64,000 bases of DNA from a virus. Below are positions 8,667-49,011 of this stretch, piece by piece (positions within the stretch are counted from its first letter, which is position 1; every line of letters starts with the position of its first letter). The notes beneath the pieces are model-generated. The model ran no database searches. It was not told where the DNA came from and was given only the letters and a program-made list of their open reading frames with translations. The stretch lies in IMG/VR virus record IMGVR_UViG_3300046170_000301. One strand, given 5' to 3'. The position numbers and the translations under genes are program-made.

Positions 8667-8724
8667 CTCATATTTACTAGTAGGAGTAGAGTTTGTTACT
8701 TTTTTGCTTCAAAGGTTCTCCCCC
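8644..8724 (-). promoter_or_regulatory. Putative -1 programmed ribosomal frameshift signal
   Basis: GGGGGAG, 12 nt, A_AAA_AAG (8705-8699), TAA, perfect 12-bp stem starting 5 nt downstream. Confidence 0.75.
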
Positions 8725-9394
8725 ATCCTGACGTAGGACCTTCTGGAGTCCACCTACGAGCCAGTTCTGAACGTTTGTAGATGGTACCCTTGCCGTTGTA
8801 TACCGAGCTTGTGTAGGCGTCGTTGAGGGAGCCGTAGGGGTCGTTGACGACGTAATCACCCGATAGGGTCTTTCCTATGACCACAACCATGTGCCCACCT
8901 GTAGGATTAGCAAGAGTGCCACGATGAAGTATCCCAATAACCACTGGTCTTCGCTTAGAAAGTTCACGATCAAGGTCATTAAAGCTAAGATGATAATGAA
9001 AGCTTGATTTAATTCCATAAGAATTTAACACTCTCGTCTGTACTAAATGGTTTGCAGTGTCACCAATAGAGAACACTTTTCTGATGTAAGCATCATCTCC
9101 TTTCTTACCAAGCAATGTGCCAGGTTTAAAATATTCAAGACACATAGCACAAGCAGAACTATTACAAGTTCTATTGGCATCTCTATAATTATCTGTCTGT
9201 GGATAATATGGAACGTTGAGAACAAGGTCTGCTGGTTTTGCCAACGGTGTTCTATATGTTTTAACCCAATCTGCTTCATCATAAAGAAGTTCTGGTTTCA
9301 ATACAGAAATTTCAGAAGCAAGTTTTGCTACTGCTTCTAAATGTTTCGGATTATTCTCGTCAAAATATTTGAAAAAATTCTTGAAGTCAATCAT
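8696..9394 (-). CDS. Peptidase C39-like (papain-fold) cell-wall protein
   Basis: LNVPYYPQTDN...TCNSSACAM, GGHMVVVIG, VNDPYG catalytic Q/C/H/D motifs. Confidence 0.85.
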   Translation of the reverse strand: MIDFKNFFKYFDENNPKHLEAVAKLASEISVLKPELLYDEADWVKTYRTPLAKPADLVLNVPYYPQTDNYRDANRTCNSSACAMCLEYFKPGTLLGKKGDDAYIRKVFSIGDTANHLVQTRVLNSYGIKSSFHYHLSFNDLDRELSKRRPVVIGILHRGTLANPTGGHMVVVIGKTLSGDYVVNDPYGSLNDAYTSSVYNGKGTIYKRSELARRWTPEGPTSGWGRTFEAKK

Positions 9395-10919: not shown

Positions 10920-13208
10920 CTAAATTTTACAGGATTCACAATCATCTTCTTGTTCGACAGAACAATCTTCTAATAATTTATTTAAACTTTCTTTGACATC
11001 AACCTCATCAGTTTTGAGGTCATTTGTGTTTTGATAGTAGGATGTTTTCCAACCGTATTTGTATGTAGTTAAAAAATCATTTGCCATCACCGACACTGGA
11101 ACTTCATTGTCAGGGTAGTTCTCTGGATTGTAACTCCAGTTACCAGATATAGGCCTGATCAAAGAATTTTTGCATCACAGATATAATTTTAATATATCCT
11201 TCATTATCTTTCATATCCCAAAGAATTGTATAGTTATTCTTTAGATGTCCGTAGGAGGGAACAATCTGTTTAAGAGGCCCTTTCTTTGATTTTTAACGGA
11301 CAAGTAGTCTCTAGGTGGTTCAATTCCGTTTGTTGCGTTTGACACAATGGAACTGCTCTCCGAAGGCATTTGTGCGGACAGAGTGCTGTGCCTGAGTCCG
11401 TGTTCCAAGATAGATGACCTAAGACTATTCCAATCATAGTTGAGTTTGTTTGGTACGATCTCATCTACTTCAGTCTTGTAAGTATCAATCGGTAATATAC
11501 CACCAGAATATTTTGTACGATTAAAATATTCACACTTACCTTTTTCTTTTGCAAGTTGATTAGATGACTTTAACAGATAATATTGAAATGCTTCAGTAAG
11601 ATCATGAGTCAATTGCCATGCAGATGAATCACCATAGTGTTCTCCGTTCTTTGCCAAGTAGTGTGCAAGACCTATAAAACCAATACCAAGAGATCTTCTT
11701 TTTTTAGTTGAATTCTCTGCGGCCTTTACTGGATATCCCTGATAGTCAATTAACTCCTCCAGGCCCCTTACAGATAGGTCACAGAGGTCTTCTAATTCCT
11801 CTAGTCTATTAATCTTTCCAACATTAATTGCGGATAAAATACAGAGAGCGATCTCTCCATCAGGGTCATCAATGTGTGAGATTGGTTTTGTGGGTAAAGT
11901 AATTTCTTGACAAAGATTACTCATGCTCACTTTATCTATAAAAGATGAATGTGAGTTGCAATGATCAATATTCATCAGATAAAGACGACCAGTTTCTGCA
12001 CGTTCCTTAAGAATGTTTAAGATTAATTCTTGAGCATCTACTTGTGACTTAGGAACTGATTCATCTAACTCATATTGAGTGTATAGTTCATCAAAAGATT
12101 CCGTACCAAAACTATCATAAAGCCCTGGCACATCATGAGGAGAAAAAAGTGTGATCTTCTCGTTTGTAATAAACCTCTCATAAAATAATTTACTCAATTG
12201 AATACTATAGTCTAGTTTCCTTACACGATTATCTTCTGTTCCTTTATTGTTCTTGAGTACAATTATGTCTTCTATTTCTTTGTGCCAGATTGGGAAGTGG
12301 ACAGTCGCTGATCCACCTCTAATGCCGTTCTGAGTGCAACATCTGACAGTACTTTCAAACTTTTTGAGGAAAGGTACAACGCCTGTGTGCTGTACTTCTC
12401 CACCCCTGATTTTACTGTTGATGCCACGGATGCGGCCTGCGTTGATACCGATACCCGCCCTTTGTGCAACATATTTGCCGATAGCCATATCAGAACTAAA
12501 GATGCTATCGAGGGTGTCATCAGAATCAACAAGAACACAGCTAGCAAATTGTCTAAGAGGAGTTCGTACCCCGCCCATGATAGGCGTGGGGATGTTGATT
12601 CGGTGTTTCGAGATTGCTTGGTAGTATCTGGTGACATAATCGAGTCTTGTTTCTTGTGGATATTCTGCAAATATAGTCATCGCAATCACAAGATACATGA
12701 ACTGAGGAGTTTCATAAACTTGCCCAGAACTTCTATCTTGCACAAGATATTTATCAACTACTTGTCTGAAGTCCAGCATATGTAAATAGATAATCCCTGA
12801 TCATGGTCAATGAAGCATTAATTTTGCATTCTTCATCTGAATATTTACAAGATTCATATCATAAACATCTAGAATCATGATATAGCAGCAATGCATCAAA
12901 ACATGTTGGCAGTTCCTTTCCTCCAAATGTCATATACTTTTACGAATAGAGAATAAAAGTAATCTTGCTGCAACAAATTGATAGTTAGGATGGTCAAGTG
13001 AAATAAGGTCGCTTGCTGAACGAATAAGAATCTCTTGGATTTCTTCTGTTGTAATACCGTCATAAAACTGAATACCAGAATTCATTTCTACTTGAGAAGC
13101 AGAAACTCCACCAATACCTTCACATGCTTCGTCTACCATTTTGTGGATTTTGTCAAGATTTAGCGGTTCAACGGCACCGCTTCTCTTTTTTACGTTGATA
13201 CTGCTCAT
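10920..13208 (-). CDS. nrdA: Ribonucleotide reductase class Ia alpha subunit (several apparent indels, garbled 12780-12930)
   Basis: ATP-cone VKKR, QFASCVL, SNLCQEI, MPSESSS, KTSYY, C-terminal CESCKI. Confidence 0.93.
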
Positions 13209-14200
13209 ACTTTTTTCCATTCGATTAACTTTAACTTTGCTTCTAATCCTTGATAAGTATTGTATTTTACCACACTTTGAACATCGTGTCCAGATAAAAC
13301 CATGTCGTTGACATCTTTATCTGTTATAGAACTTGGCCATATCACTACTGGATAACCTTTGTCGATTGTCTTTGATATTTTATCAACGATTTCTCGGTTT
13401 CTTGGTTCGTTATCAAATACGAATGTAAATTGATAATTGAAAGTGCTAAGGTCAACATCGCTACCGCACATAGCAATACTGTTCCTAATGAACATGGAGT
13501 CAAAGGGTCCTTCGGTAACATAAATCTGTTTCTCCAAATCAACTCTATCCCAACCAAACACTTTTTGTTTGGCATCATCTAACATGACACTGATGTATCT
13601 TAGCTTTGCTTTAGGGGCAAGTGAACGTCCTTGATATCCGAACATCTTACCATCTTTATCCCTCATTGGGATTATAATACGAGGACTATCTTTCCTCAAA
13701 GTATCAAATACTTTCTTTTGAGAATTAGTCCACTCTTTAAATTTAGGACAATAGAAAAAGTAATCTAACTCTTTAATTTTTCTTGATTCTAAGTATTGTC
13801 TGGCTGGGTGAGAAGTATTTAGATTTGATATTGATTCCAAGTTTACATCTCTTTTTGTTTTAACAAAAACAGGTGGTTTGAAATTGAAATCTGGATTCTT
13901 TGTTTGTGTTCCTTTGCCAGTCAGACCTTCTTTGTATCTTTCCAACACATACTGGTCATGAAGATGTGGACAATTATCCTTCAAGAAATTGGTAAATGTC
14001 CTTCCAACTCCACAGTTATGGCATTTGAAAACAAAGTCATTTTTTATCTTAAACAGATATCCCCGAGTTTTATCTTTTCTTTTTTTACTGTCTCCACAAT
14101 ATGGACACCTGAAATTATAAAGGGAATCTTTTTTTCTTGAGAATTTTAGTAATTGAGGTGATATAAGATTGATGTATTTAACATCAATGTAACTCATCAT
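13205..14200 (-). CDS. g61: DNA primase (T4 gp61)
   Basis: CPYCGDS..CHNCG zinc finger; TOPRIM EGPFDS, FDNEPRN, KDVND. Confidence 0.95.
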   Translation of the reverse strand: MMSYIDVKYINLISPQLLKFSRKKDSLYNFRCPYCGDSKKRKDKTRGYLFKIKNDFVFKCHNCGVGRTFTNFLKDNCPHLHDQYVLERYKEGLTGKGTQTKNPDFNFKPPVFVKTKRDVNLESISNLNTSHPARQYLESRKIKELDYFFYCPKFKEWTNSQKKVFDTLRKDSPRIIIPMRDKDGKMFGYQGRSLAPKAKLRYISVMLDDAKQKVFGWDRVDLEKQIYVTEGPFDSMFIRNSIAMCGSDVDLSTFNYQFTFVFDNEPRNREIVDKISKTIDKGYPVVIWPSSITDKDVNDMVLSGHDVQSVVKYNTYQGLEAKLKLIEWKKV

Positions 14201-14626: not shown

Positions 14627-15346
14627 TCAAACATTACGAACTGAAAAATCAAGAACTTGCTGGAAAGTAGCAGCATCCTTGTTTAACATATAACGGAACC
14701 TATCTTTATTATCATCATTCAATTGAGAATAAGCAGCAGCAATTCTTTTTGCTGAAAAGTTGTCGAGGTTCTGTTGTGTTCCATCACCAAAAGTAATCTT
14801 AGCAAAGTTTGCTTCTCCTCTTGGGTCAAGTTCAGATGTAGCAACTTGTAGTGCTACTTCAAGAGCATCAACTCCAGTGTTTTCGTTAATCATGTCACCC
14901 TCCATTTCGTAAGAATTTTTTAGTGATGCTTTTTTCTGTTGTTCGGATGCTTTCTTTTTAAAATCAGCAAGACGAGCTTTCATTAAAGTATCCATCTCTT
15001 TAGTCTTGTCCTGCATTTTTGCTTTAGCTTCATCTCTTTTTTTCTGAAGCTCTTTAGACCTCTTGAGCTTTTTTTGTTGCCCAATAGATTTTTGTGCTCT
15101 CTCGGTTTCTGAAGGAGCAGCTTCTAGAATTTGTTTGTCTAGTTCTTCTTTCATTTTTTTACGTCTGGAAATACGAGAGAGTAGATTTTTTGCCCCCTTT
15201 GTTCTGCCGTCAATATAATCTTTATTATTTTTTTTATATTTACGACGCTGTTTTGTATTAACAAATACAAATGCTGGTGGAAGTGCAAGTCCACTTCCAT
15301 CACCTGCTATCATTTCTTTTAAATTAGATTCAGTTTCTTTAGACAT
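14627..15346 (-). CDS. Hypothetical charged protein
   Basis: 239-aa ORF within the operon. Confidence 0.7.
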   Translation of the reverse strand: MSKETESNLKEMIAGDGSGLALPPAFVFVNTKQRRKYKKNNKDYIDGRTKGAKNLLSRISRRKKMKEELDKQILEAAPSETERAQKSIGQQKKLKRSKELQKKRDEAKAKMQDKTKEMDTLMKARLADFKKKASEQQKKASLKNSYEMEGDMINENTGVDALEVALQVATSELDPRGEANFAKITFGDGTQQNLDNFSAKRIAAAYSQLNDDNKDRFRYMLNKDAATFQQVLDFSVRNV

Positions 15347-16686: not shown

Positions 16687-16834
16687 AATTTATTCTCCTT
16701 AAGGTAAGTTGGTCGTGGGTTTCCCTAATCTATTTATGTAAATTGGGGTCTTTCAACTGAGGAGACATTGTTTTAGATTGTCCCTTCATTGCTTTCTTAA
16801 GATACTTTCTTGTTTTCTTTTTATTTTCCATATC

Positions 16835-16917
16835 GTCAGGACCACCGTCTTCTAATTTAGGCATCACCTCAACGGTAGGTTCTGACTTCTTTACTTTTTT
16901 TCCTCTTCAATCTCCTT
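16835..16917 (-). promoter_or_regulatory. Putative -1 programmed ribosomal frameshift signal
   Basis: AAGGAG, 11 nt, A_AAA_AAG (16900-16894), TAA, 13-bp interrupted stem starting 7 nt downstream. Confidence 0.7.
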
Positions 16918-17772
16918 ACGAAGTTCTGCTTCCTCTTTCATTTTTTTCTTCTTAGAAATAATCTTGGAAACTTTCTTACGACGATTTAGAAGATACTTAT
17001 CGGACTTATCGTGGTCACCATCATTGTCAATATCCTTATCTTCTTTCCCTACTGGGTCAAGTGCTTCATTGGTCTTTTTCTTTTCTGGAAGACCTTTATG
17101 CTTAGTAGAAGCAAACTTCTCTGCTTCCTTTCCAGTCATTGACTTAGCAGCTTTATCAACTTCTTTAGAACCACCTCTCATTTCGCCTTTCTTTTTAGCG
17201 TGAACCATTCCCATGAAGCGTTGTTGTGCTTTACTTACTGACTTCTCTTGAAGTTCTTCGCCATCATGCTCGACTTCATCACCAGCTTTCACACAGTTAT
17301 CAACTCTCTTACCACCTTTTATCTTGGTTCCCATTTGCTTGTATCCTTTCCAACAAGCTTTACCATCTAAACCTTTCTTCTTGTCTGCTTCAAATACATA
17401 AGTGAAACCATCAAGTTCAAACTCGTAGGTTTCTTTCTTCATATCCTTATCTTTCTTCTCACAGCGGGAGCACCCCTTCCCGCCGCAGTAAGAGCAGGTA
17501 TCACACGACTCCTTCGTAACCAGTTTCGTGGTGTCCTTAATCTCTGCTCCGTGTGATTGTTTAATACCAGAACCAGTCCGTAAATCAACAGCAGGGTCAG
17601 GAGATGAAGCGTTTGCTTTTGGGTCTTTTTTGGAAGTGTCATCTTGCTTCTTTTTAGACTTGTCTAGCGTAGGAATACCCTCTTCGCCTAAACGTTTTAC
17701 AGTTCCTTCAATGAGTGCTTTTGAGAACTCGTCATTATAATGAACAGAGTTTACTGGTTTCTGTTTTTCCAT
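16891..17772 (-). CDS. Lys/Glu-rich modular protein, putative internal head protein; -1 frame extends it to 16730
   Basis: Modules [38 protein letters not shown] separated by Glu-ending linkers. Confidence 0.75.
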
Positions 17773-17798: not shown

Positions 17799-18020
17799 CT
17801 ATTTAGTATTATTAACATTTATCTCACGTAAATCAGTTACCCAGGCACGAAACATTTCTCCCTTTTCTGTAACGGCAATTACATAGTTAACACCAGGACG
17901 AATAATCTTTCCCTTTTGTTTTGTGTTAACATCTAAAACAACATCGCCTTCTTGAAATATTTCTTTTCTAATATATCTTTCTTTAGTTGCTTCCTTTCTG
18001 AATTGCCTGAAATCTTTCAT
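17799..18020 (-). CDS. Small SH3/KOW-like protein
   Basis: [26 protein letters not shown]; resembles the C-terminal domain of cyanophage cytidylyltransferase-like proteins (recall). Confidence 0.6.
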
Positions 18021-47364: not shown

Positions 47365-49011
47365 TTAATAGTTCCACATGTATGAAACATCTTCTTGGGT
47401 ATCGCCATACCAGACAGTTCCATCAGTAACTATACCTTCATCTCCTTCTAGTCCAGTTACAATAAATCCAAACGGAGACATGTCCTGTTCTATTTGATTT
47501 TTTTGTTCTTCGTAAATTCTTTTACGAACGTCGTTATCTGTCATTTCTTTAAAGTAATCTTGGGTTGCCAACCACGCAAAAATTACCAGACACATAACTA
47601 AGTCGTCATGAAATCCCTCGTCAGCTTCAAACGATTGTTTCTTTTGAATAAAAGTTGTTAGTTCGTTGATAATATCGTAATCTCGGAAAAGTAGTTTGTC
47701 GTCTTCGACCATTTGCTTAAGATTAGCACATCCTTGTTTCTTAACAGTGACGCTCATCTTAACGCCTAACTGAGTTTTATTTCCAGAAAATCCTTGCCCC
47801 ACAAGTTGACCAGCACGACCTCTCATCGAGCACATTAAAACATTTGGATACTCTAAGTCATATTGTAAAATTGACGCTACTTGGTCGCCAACATCATTTA
47901 CTTCACAAAGGACATAAGCATGATTATATGCTCTTGCCACATCATTAATTATGTTAGGAAAGAGCATAGGTTTTATTTCATTGTTACGAAACTTAGCAAC
48001 TATCTGATAGGGGACAGTTGTAATATCGAATACAATAAAAGCAGAATAATCACCACCGATTCCTCTACTAACATCAGCAGTGATGATATACTCTTTATTA
48101 GATTTTGGTTCTTCGTAAACATTAAATCCTTTATTAGTTCTGATAGGAGTATCAAAAACTAATGAGCGAAGTTTTGAAGCAGCAATCAGCGTATCAACAG
48201 AACCCAAGAACTCACATTCAAATTCCTGAGTGAACTGACGCTCGGACGTGTTCTTAATTGTTTCTTCTTTCCACTTCTCATCACGCCCAGGAACTTCAGA
48301 CCAATGGACTTCAGTCCACACATAGTTGTTTCTTTTGTTTTGAGCATCAACCCACAACTTATAGAAGTGGTTCATACCATACGGGGTTGAAATGATAATA
48401 ACTTTTGTTTTTTGTCCAGAAGAAATTGTAGGATATACTGAACTGAAAAAGTCATCAGCGATATGATTTGGAACGAAAGCAAACTCGTCCAAGAAGATGA
48501 TGTTAAATGACATACCACGAACAGCAGATGCTGATGTGGACGCTGCCATAATCTTAGAACCATTTTCCAGTTCCATAGAACCTTTGTTCCAAGCAATCAC
48601 ACCTTGCTGTAACCACTTAGGAAGATTCTCGTATGCTGTCTGTAATCTTCCTAATAGGTCACGGGCAGTAGATGCTTTGTTAGCAAGAATACCAATGTTT
48701 GAATTGTCATTGAACAAAGCATAATGAAGAAGATAGGAAACAACAACAGTTGACTTTCCCGTCTGCCTCGGCAGTTTAGCAATATTAAATCTATTGTTGT
48801 GAAATTTTTCTACTAATTCTTTTTGGAACTTATACATCCTAAAAGGAATCAGACCTTCATCAACAGAAACAATTTTTACATAATTTAAAGCAAAATATAC
48901 AGGGTCTTCCTTACACTTTACATATTCTTCAATCTGCTTTTTTGTCCACTGATGTTGGACGTTTGCTTTCTTAAGTAACGGATTACCTAAGTATATCTGG
49001 TCACTTGCCAT
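47365..49011 (-). CDS. g17: Terminase large subunit (gp17)
   Basis: PRQTGKST, LDEFAF, ISTP, HDDLVM. Confidence 0.97.
   Translation of the reverse strand: MASDQIYLGNPLLKKANVQHQWTKKQIEEYVKCKEDPVYFALNYVKIVSVDEGLIPFRMYKFQKELVEKFHNNRFNIAKLPRQTGKSTVVVSYLLHYALFNDNSNIGILANKASTARDLLGRLQTAYENLPKWLQQGVIAWNKGSMELENGSKIMAASTSASAVRGMSFNIIFLDEFAFVPNHIADDFFSSVYPTISSGQKTKVIIISTPYGMNHFYKLWVDAQNKRNNYVWTEVHWSEVPGRDEKWKEETIKNTSERQFTQEFECEFLGSVDTLIAASKLRSLVFDTPIRTNKGFNVYEEPKSNKEYIITADVSRGIGGDYSAFIVFDITTVPYQIVAKFRNNEIKPMLFPNIINDVARAYNHAYVLCEVNDVGDQVASILQYDLEYPNVLMCSMRGRAGQLVGQGFSGNKTQLGVKMSVTVKKQGCANLKQMVEDDKLLFRDYDIINELTTFIQKKQSFEADEGFHDDLVMCLVIFAWLATQDYFKEMTDNDVRKRIYEEQKNQIEQDMSPFGFIVTGLEGDEGIVTDGTVWYGDTQEDVSYMWNY

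Follow-up and report, generated by a model that had tools for sequence, protein, structure and literature searches.

The window analysed here, the whole 64,000-nt stretch of IMG/VR record IMGVR_UViG_3300046170_000301, is that of a T4-like cyanomyovirus, and a 1.5-kb query taken at the site described below matched 153 phage records, nearly all of them Synechococcus or Prochlorococcus myoviruses. On the minus strand, the ORF list contains a gene of 293 aa (17772..16891), whose 3' end reads GAG GAA AAA AAG TAA, exactly as the first-pass annotation of this DNA had it; the frame of this gene is referred to as the zero frame. The encoded protein is modular, Lys/Glu-rich and mostly predicted to be disordered. 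It falls into phrog_4359 (E 3.7e-78), a family to which no function is assigned, and it carries a DUF3008 domain at aa 180-232 (Pfam PF11450, 29.7 bits with a cutoff of 24) and, also within the zero frame, a CWKGY...NCV module. The ESM Atlas model of the protein is mostly of low confidence (pLDDT 0.57), and the relatives found there are all viral hypothetical proteins. A PDB sequence search and NCBIfam gave no match for the 293-aa protein or for the tails presented below, and a literature search on DUF3008 found no paper. DUF3008 and DUF6321 modules were found, too, on phage NT5C, SAM-lyase and zeta-toxin-like proteins. The neighbouring upstream gene of 73 aa (17799-18020, minus strand) matches phrog_4808, labelled 'ribonucleotide reductase alpha subunit', and its S-PM2 homologue is annotated as NrdB. 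The gene is far too small for such a label, which looks like the propagated mis-annotation of a small module; the module is present in 'cytidyltransferase' proteins as well.

The 293-aa product had initially been labelled a putative internal head protein, and this label found no backing, either in a function match from protein families, PDB or NCBIfam, or in the S-PM2 homologues, which correspond to T4-GC 842/843. In the table of Sullivan et al. 2010 (PMC3037559), which integrates the virion proteomes of S-PM2, Syn9 and S-SM1, T4-GC 842/843 are given as hypothetical, with no structural mark. That they are missing from these old proteomes is weak evidence against their presence in the virion. 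Internal head proteins of the T4 type have an N-terminal targeting propeptide that ends in a site for the prohead protease (L/I-x-E). The N-terminal ~22 residues are strongly conserved among the relatives and end in A-L-I/M-E/D; the likeness to the cleavage logo of gp21, the prohead protease (PMC9026906), is one of motif resemblance only.

The last two sense codons of the gene complete a slippery heptamer, A_AAA_AAG (16900-16894, minus strand), which stands in X_XXY_YYZ phase with the 293-aa gene and is directly adjoined by the zero-frame stop TAA (16893-16891, minus strand) that ends the 293-aa form. In E. coli, a single tRNA-Lys(UUU) reads both AAA and AAG, which is the basis of the high shiftiness of A_AAA_AAG. 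No tRNA-Lys was found in the window, where tRNA-Gly, Pro, Trp and Arg are the only ones present. Across the relatives, the nine bases GAAAAAAAG were invariant in 24 of 24 aligned sequences, with variation at the flanking synonymous third positions, and not one of the 24 used other synonymous Glu-Lys-Lys codons at the junction. The run consists of exactly seven A, with G on both sides, in every relative, and it is never longer in more than 100 unique sequences. The stop that follows is TGA in 43 and TAA in 42 of the 85 unique sequences (among the matches listed). In the loci L009-L012, it comes one codon later (AAG CAG TGA); the heptamer keeps its sequence and its phase there, and an open -1 frame starts from it. 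A homopolymer miscall in the reads, which had been named at first pass as something that could undo the claim, is ruled out: the nine bases recur in 27 similarity-picked and at least 85 pattern-picked unique sequences, and the site is conserved in independent assemblies and in finished isolate genomes.

Within the 64-kb window, the 60 ORFs contain five in-phase copies of A_AAA_AAG, and two of these five form the last two codons before a TAA. The second such gene (8696-9394, minus strand; 232 aa) ends in GCA AAA AAG TAA; it shares with the site at 16900-16894 the distinction of being the only in-phase heptamers of the window directly before TAA, and differs from it in that the genes and their flanking sequences are unrelated. 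By a rough estimate, which is not a computed test, two of five abutting TAA is very unlikely to be due to chance. The remaining three copies are internal, in the minus-strand ORFs 14627-15346 (codon 93 of 239), 47365-49011 (codon 25 of 548) and 12930-13220 (codon 12 of 96); judged by eye, a slip at the first of these would end after ~4 codons. Thus, no avoidance of in-phase A_AAA_AAG was seen within the window, and since three internal sites are tolerated, the heptamer alone may be only mildly shifty in this host.

From the heptamer onwards, the -1 frame runs through 54 codons to a TAG (16894..16730, with the stop at 16732-16730; minus strand), and its translation is identical to that reported in the first-pass annotation. 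The tail matches phrog_11250 (E 6.2e-12) and holds a conserved module composed of VEVMPxIxDG and KKYxLKAxK (phrog_11250; module alignments A2 and A3). The module is under clear purifying selection among relatives in which the upstream protein is 39-89% identical to that of the window, and more than 100 unique sequences, without exception, have an open -1 frame. Tail lengths range from 27 to 95 aa, the distal modules differ widely as well, and the tail of S-PM2 contains a Pfam-significant DUF3008 domain. In L003, the closest relative (89% identical protein), the heptamer, the TAA and the VEVMP codons are kept, and a deletion of ~40 nt (L003:2311-2395) leads to an early stop, which leaves a tail of 27 aa and weakens the outer stem of the hairpin considered below (CTGAC to CTCAC). 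This truncation indicates that the distal tail is dispensable in this lineage.

Could the -1 ORF be a silent remnant, that is, an unexpressed and decaying former gene, with the heptamer kept merely as Glu-Lys-Lys codons? Both the shortened tail of L003 and the variation in tail length and distal modules would be in keeping with such decay. The selection acting on the module, the frame that stays open throughout and the synonymous Glu-Lys-Lys alternatives that are never used all speak against it, and we consider silence of this ORF highly improbable. A recent pseudogene was likewise rejected, given the selection on the module and the invariance of the site.

A profile of the VEVMP module searched against 1.84 billion representative proteins gave 23 matches, nearly all of which were short stand-alone calls; the exceptions were a duplicated release-factor-like fragment and a weak match of 957 aa. 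Most of the database representatives of the module begin at the ATG or at the GTG that overlaps the stop. An in-frame fused homologue was found neither in the search for longer proteins with the tail nor among these 1.84 billion representatives, so these searches gave no independent sign of the two parts working as one chain. The segment AVEVMPEIED of the tail (16859-16876 of the window) also occurs in a release-factor-2-like fragment, P0018, with a profile E-value near 1e-4. For a motif of 10 residues, such a match is probably due to chance, and it is odd only in that the tail starts at a stop codon.

How is the module expressed in the relatives? For an unbiased sample, IMG/VR loci were fetched by their similarity to the 293-aa protein only, and their 3' junctions were tabulated. 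Thirty-five of these loci (39-89% aa identity; S-PM2, S-CAM1 and S-RIM32 included) end in GAA AAA AAG plus TGA or TAA, and all of them have an open -1 frame of 27-95 codons, with V-K-x-x-x-V-E-V-M-P-x-I-x-D-G at its beginning. Six other loci (L013, L026-L029 and L048) have no heptamer; there, the ATG of the downstream ORF overlaps the stop (ATGA), and the ORF reads MKxFKxx-R-EECGC-...-VEVMPTINDG. No decayed or degenerate heptamer was encountered among the similarity-picked loci. According to alignment A2, the independent proteins of this ATGA clade are homologous to the -1 tails, and both types have the VEVMP module and the VAPPGKKYERMVKHIKK module in common. Since the module is a coupled gene of its own in the ATGA clade, fusion is not obligatory. 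Probably, the downstream module was once an independent ATGA-coupled small gene with an MKxFKxF...EECGC leader, as it still is in one clade, and the heptamer clade probably lost this leader together with the start, so that the module is expressed as a tail. The MKxFKxF..EE leader of the independent form resembles the sequence that targets the internal proteins of T4 to the capsid. Many small cyanophage ORFs whose start overlaps the preceding stop as ATGA or TGATG begin with MK(T/S)FK(Q/E/D)F, which has the same likeness (L013, L026-L029, L048, L043, L050, L053-L055 and L064), and a beginning of this type may identify a class of small proteins directed to the capsid.

A pattern scan for the heptamer, a stop and an ATGCC motif, with a spacing of 12-30 nt allowed, returned at least 120 IMG/VR contigs with 85 unique sequences. 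At least 85 distinct relatives thus show the pattern, S-PM2, Syn1, S-CAM1 and S-RIM32 among them, and in the matches listed the ATG is always in the -1 phase, 8, 9 or 10 codons from the heptamer. In L192 (60-514), the junction is a different one (GCA AAA AAG TAG), and a -1 ORF without a start codon combines the CWKGY...NCV module and a VEIMP module in one frame; this junction indicates that the cassette occurs at other module boundaries of this protein family. The first ~60 nt of the L192 contig look like a sequencing adaptor.

Two elements flanking the heptamer are presumed to act as stimulators. On the 5' side, the SD-like AAGGAG (16917-16912, minus strand) ends exactly 11 nt before the heptamer, which bears out the first-pass reading of this motif. 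In cassettes of the dnaX type, the SD-like stimulator lies about 10-14 nt before the heptamer. Among the matches listed, AAGGAG, AGGAG or GGAG stands at 11 nt in 59 of the 85 unique relatives; 18 of the 85, which make up the S-PM2 subgroup, have AAGGAGG at 7 nt and not at 11, and the element is missing in two of the 85.

On the 3' side, a bulged 13-bp hairpin (16886-16835, minus strand) begins 7 nt after the heptamer, within the 5-9 nt at which a stem-loop or pseudoknot is expected in cassettes of the dnaX type. Its arms, 16886-16872 and 16848-16835, pair as had been claimed, with an MFE of -21.6 kcal/mol and a z-score of -4.46, and none of 200 dinucleotide shuffles folds as well. The GTG ATG of the VEVMP motif lies in the loop of this hairpin. 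The 70 nt after the heptamer have a mean z-score of -2.9 in 87 unique sequences, compared with -0.5 in 170 control windows from the same upstream ORFs (Mann-Whitney p = 6e-27, a value that overstates independence because the sequences are related). The first paired base is located at +6 to +8 after the heptamer in 59 of the 87 unique sequences. The ATGA group has no hairpin (z -0.8 to +1.5). RNAalifold run on 24 aligned junctions produced no consensus structure; the subgroups use differing stems at one common position, and no single hairpin spans all of them. The conservation in homologues that had been put forward as a check on the claim stands for the two Lys codons of the heptamer and the stop (35 loci; in L009-L012 the stop is one codon later), whereas for the stem it holds by subgroup and fails for one shared hairpin.

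The largest subgroup, with 46 sequences in a gapless alignment (A4), was examined for covariation in a 10-bp helix between columns 14-24 and 46-55. Pairing was possible in 81.6% of the cells, compared with 29-57% when the partners were slid by 1-3 columns, a control that is somewhat flattering since the structure was derived from those same sequences. The covariation score was 0.283 versus 0.21 in shuffles, with none of 500 shuffles reaching 0.283, and both-side changes occur in five pairs. The swaps between A-U and U-A (columns 18/51) and between G-C and C-G (columns 15/54) are located at third codon positions that are synonymous in the -1 frame. Rfam had nothing near the gathering score for the downstream hairpin. 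No intrinsic terminator was found on the strand of the gene, so the hairpin is not a terminator.

The run of seven A raises the question of whether the two frames are joined at transcription rather than at translation. The RNA polymerase would then add one A within A7 in part of the mRNAs, and ordinary decoding of these would give the same extended protein. Slippage on A runs is known from Thermus dnaX and some IS elements; here, the run is invariant, and one added A would, as we reason, lead to the same frame and leave the residues at the junction practically unchanged. Runs on which a polymerase slips efficiently are, as a rule, at least 9 A or T long. The run found here falls short of this length, as it is always A7, ends in a conserved G and never extends further. 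Moreover, an SD-like element at 11 nt and a covarying hairpin 6-7 nt downstream are typical of ribosomal stimulation and have no role for a polymerase. We therefore regard transcriptional slippage as quite unlikely at this site.

Another important issue is whether the module is translated from a start codon of its own. The only canonical -1-frame starts of the junction are the GTG and ATG at 16867-16862 (minus strand), 27 and 30 nt after the heptamer, and an ORF of 45 aa beginning at this GTG is in the ORF list. Ribosomes could stop at TAA and re-initiate, or initiate, at these codons, producing a protein of 44-45 aa with no frameshift. The invariance of the ATG fits such a small gene, as do the gene callers and GenBank, which make the module a separate gene (S-PM2p143, the 54-aa ORF of S-CAM1 and the 28-aa ORF of Syn1), the starts of most database representatives and the sister clade, in which the module clearly is a separate ATGA-coupled gene. 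In addition, the loop of the hairpin contains GAGGTGAT (16870-16863, minus strand), an 8-nt complement of the 3' end of 16S rRNA that overlaps the ATG.

The codons that precede the ATG point the other way. Over the nine bases before it (V-E-V), entropy is 0-0.39 at the first and second positions of the -1 codons and 0.93-1.32 at the third, and the codons after the ATG show a similar three-base periodicity, so the stretch upstream of the supposed start is under -1-frame coding selection. Among the matches listed, ATG, GTG and TTG are all absent between the heptamer and the ATG in 16 of the 85 unique sequences, each of which has TAA, so that no start precedes the constrained codons there. Start-less junctions of this kind also appear in the 27-sequence set (S-RIM32, which is L016, and L017 and L020). 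The near-identical pairs L017/L023 and L020/L021 differ in having TAA or TGA, a change that is synonymous in the -1 frame (GTA/GTG), and this difference implies that the GTG overlapping TGA is dispensable. In the window itself, the stop is TAA; the -1 codon is therefore GTA, and no start overlaps the stop. In L195, the -1 frame stays open for 22 codons after TAA and starts with VNEEC, a homologue of the EECGC leader seen in the independent form; this stretch precedes the first codon that could serve as a start (TTG, codon 6). In the ATGA clade, V-E-V-M-P lies 25-30 residues inside the protein, which shows that the Met is conserved as a residue and not as a start.

The context of the ATG is also poorly suited to initiation. 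A start overlapping or abutting the stop, or an SD sequence 5-9 nt before the start, is absent from the window and present in the ATGA clade. Only 0-2 nt separate the SD-like GAGG from the ATG, too few for a normal SD, many relatives have GAAG (GAAGTA) in its place, and the 3' arm of the hairpin takes in the ATG in the L030 subgroup. Finally, a gene with its own start leaves the invariant in-phase heptamer and the correlated hairpin unexplained. Independent initiation near 16865, which had been named at first pass as an outcome that would overturn the frameshift, is disfavoured by the upstream coding constraint and the start-less relatives, and we judge it unlikely as the explanation of the locus; it could still coexist with frameshifting.

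Taken together, the invariant heptamer, the coding signature of the -1 frame, the start-less relatives, the covariation in the hairpin and the contrast with the ATGA group support the original prediction of a -1 frameshift with isoforms of 293 and 347 aa. Based on sequence comparison, we propose, with a probability of about 0.78, that a programmed -1 ribosomal frameshift of the dnaX type takes place at the last two codons of this late-region cyanomyovirus gene. Most ribosomes would read GAA AAA AAG and then TAA, releasing the 293-aa protein. Some would slip one base back on A_AAA_AAG as both Lys-tRNAs re-pair with AAA AAA, presumably stimulated by anti-SD pairing with AAGGAG 11 nt upstream and by the hairpin 7 nt downstream; the adjacent stop, if decoded slowly, is a possible further stimulator. 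The shifted ribosomes would go on with GTA AAG AAG and add 54 residues, yielding a minor isoform of 347 aa in addition to the major one of 293 aa. That slippage takes place in the host, how efficient it is and what two isoforms might do are what we infer from the sequences.

The closest parallel in design is the tau/gamma system of E. coli dnaX, which has the identical A_AAA_AAG, an SD-like element upstream (AGGGAG at 10 nt), a stem-loop 6-7 nt downstream and two isoforms from one gene. Unlike the shifted ribosome of dnaX, which stops almost at once and makes the shorter product, the shifted ribosome here would add a 54-aa module, and it is the zero frame that ends right after the heptamer. 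Furthermore, the protein families are unrelated, the host is a cyanobacterium, and different subgroups have different stems at one position instead of a single conserved hairpin. The gpG/gpGT pair of lambda is similar in being a phage late-gene -1 shift that is common to many phages and, by way of overlapping ORFs, yields a short form and one extended at the C terminus. It differs in that the gene studied here is no tail chaperone and does not lie between the tail tube and tape-measure genes, that its heptamer abuts the stop, and that a sister clade has the second ORF as a separate coupled gene. Genes coupled through ATGA or GTGA resemble the locus as well, since their second ORF is in the -1 frame and begins at the stop of the first gene, and one clade is truly coupled in this way; in the window, by contrast, the stop is TAA, and the first start comes 27 nt downstream, after codons under coding constraint.

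The frameshift mechanism itself is textbook knowledge. Our search of the literature on frameshifting in cyanophages, S-PM2, cyanomyoviruses and Synechococcus phages found no report of this site, and no slippage annotation for this gene was found in GenBank. The tail is annotated as a separate gene in S-PM2 (S-PM2p143, 92 aa), S-CAM1 (54 aa) and Syn1 (28 aa), and it is left unannotated in Sf-CH3. If the frameshift is real, the genomes of S-PM2, Syn1, S-CAM1, S-RIM32 and Sf-CH3 mis-annotate or omit an isoform, having an orphan gene of 28-92 aa or nothing in its place. The immediate impact is limited, as the protein belongs to a family with no assigned function. The site would also provide a well-conserved and easily testable dnaX-like frameshift in cyanobacterial hosts, in which recoding has been little studied, and the sister clade with its ordinary coupled gene offers a natural comparison for a frameshift site arising from, or decaying into, a start codon.

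Together with the site in the 8696-9394 gene, a real frameshift at the locus would suggest that cyanomyoviruses reuse one cassette to set the ratios between isoforms of late proteins. The junctions seen are of at least three kinds: that of the 293-aa gene, the L192-type junction before the CWKGY module and that of the 8696-9394 gene. It is possible, although we hold the idea only tentatively and think it rather doubtful, that A_AAA_AAG plus a stop is a general recoding device of T4-like cyanophages, placed at the module boundaries of shuffled Lys-rich late proteins and appending optional modules in sub-stoichiometric amounts. Under this broader reading, a small gene that was once independent would have had its start and its MKxFKxF leader replaced by the cassette here. 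That leader resembles the T4 capsid-targeting sequence, and if the reading is right, the frameshift would let the module ride on the upstream protein instead of relying on a targeting signal of its own.
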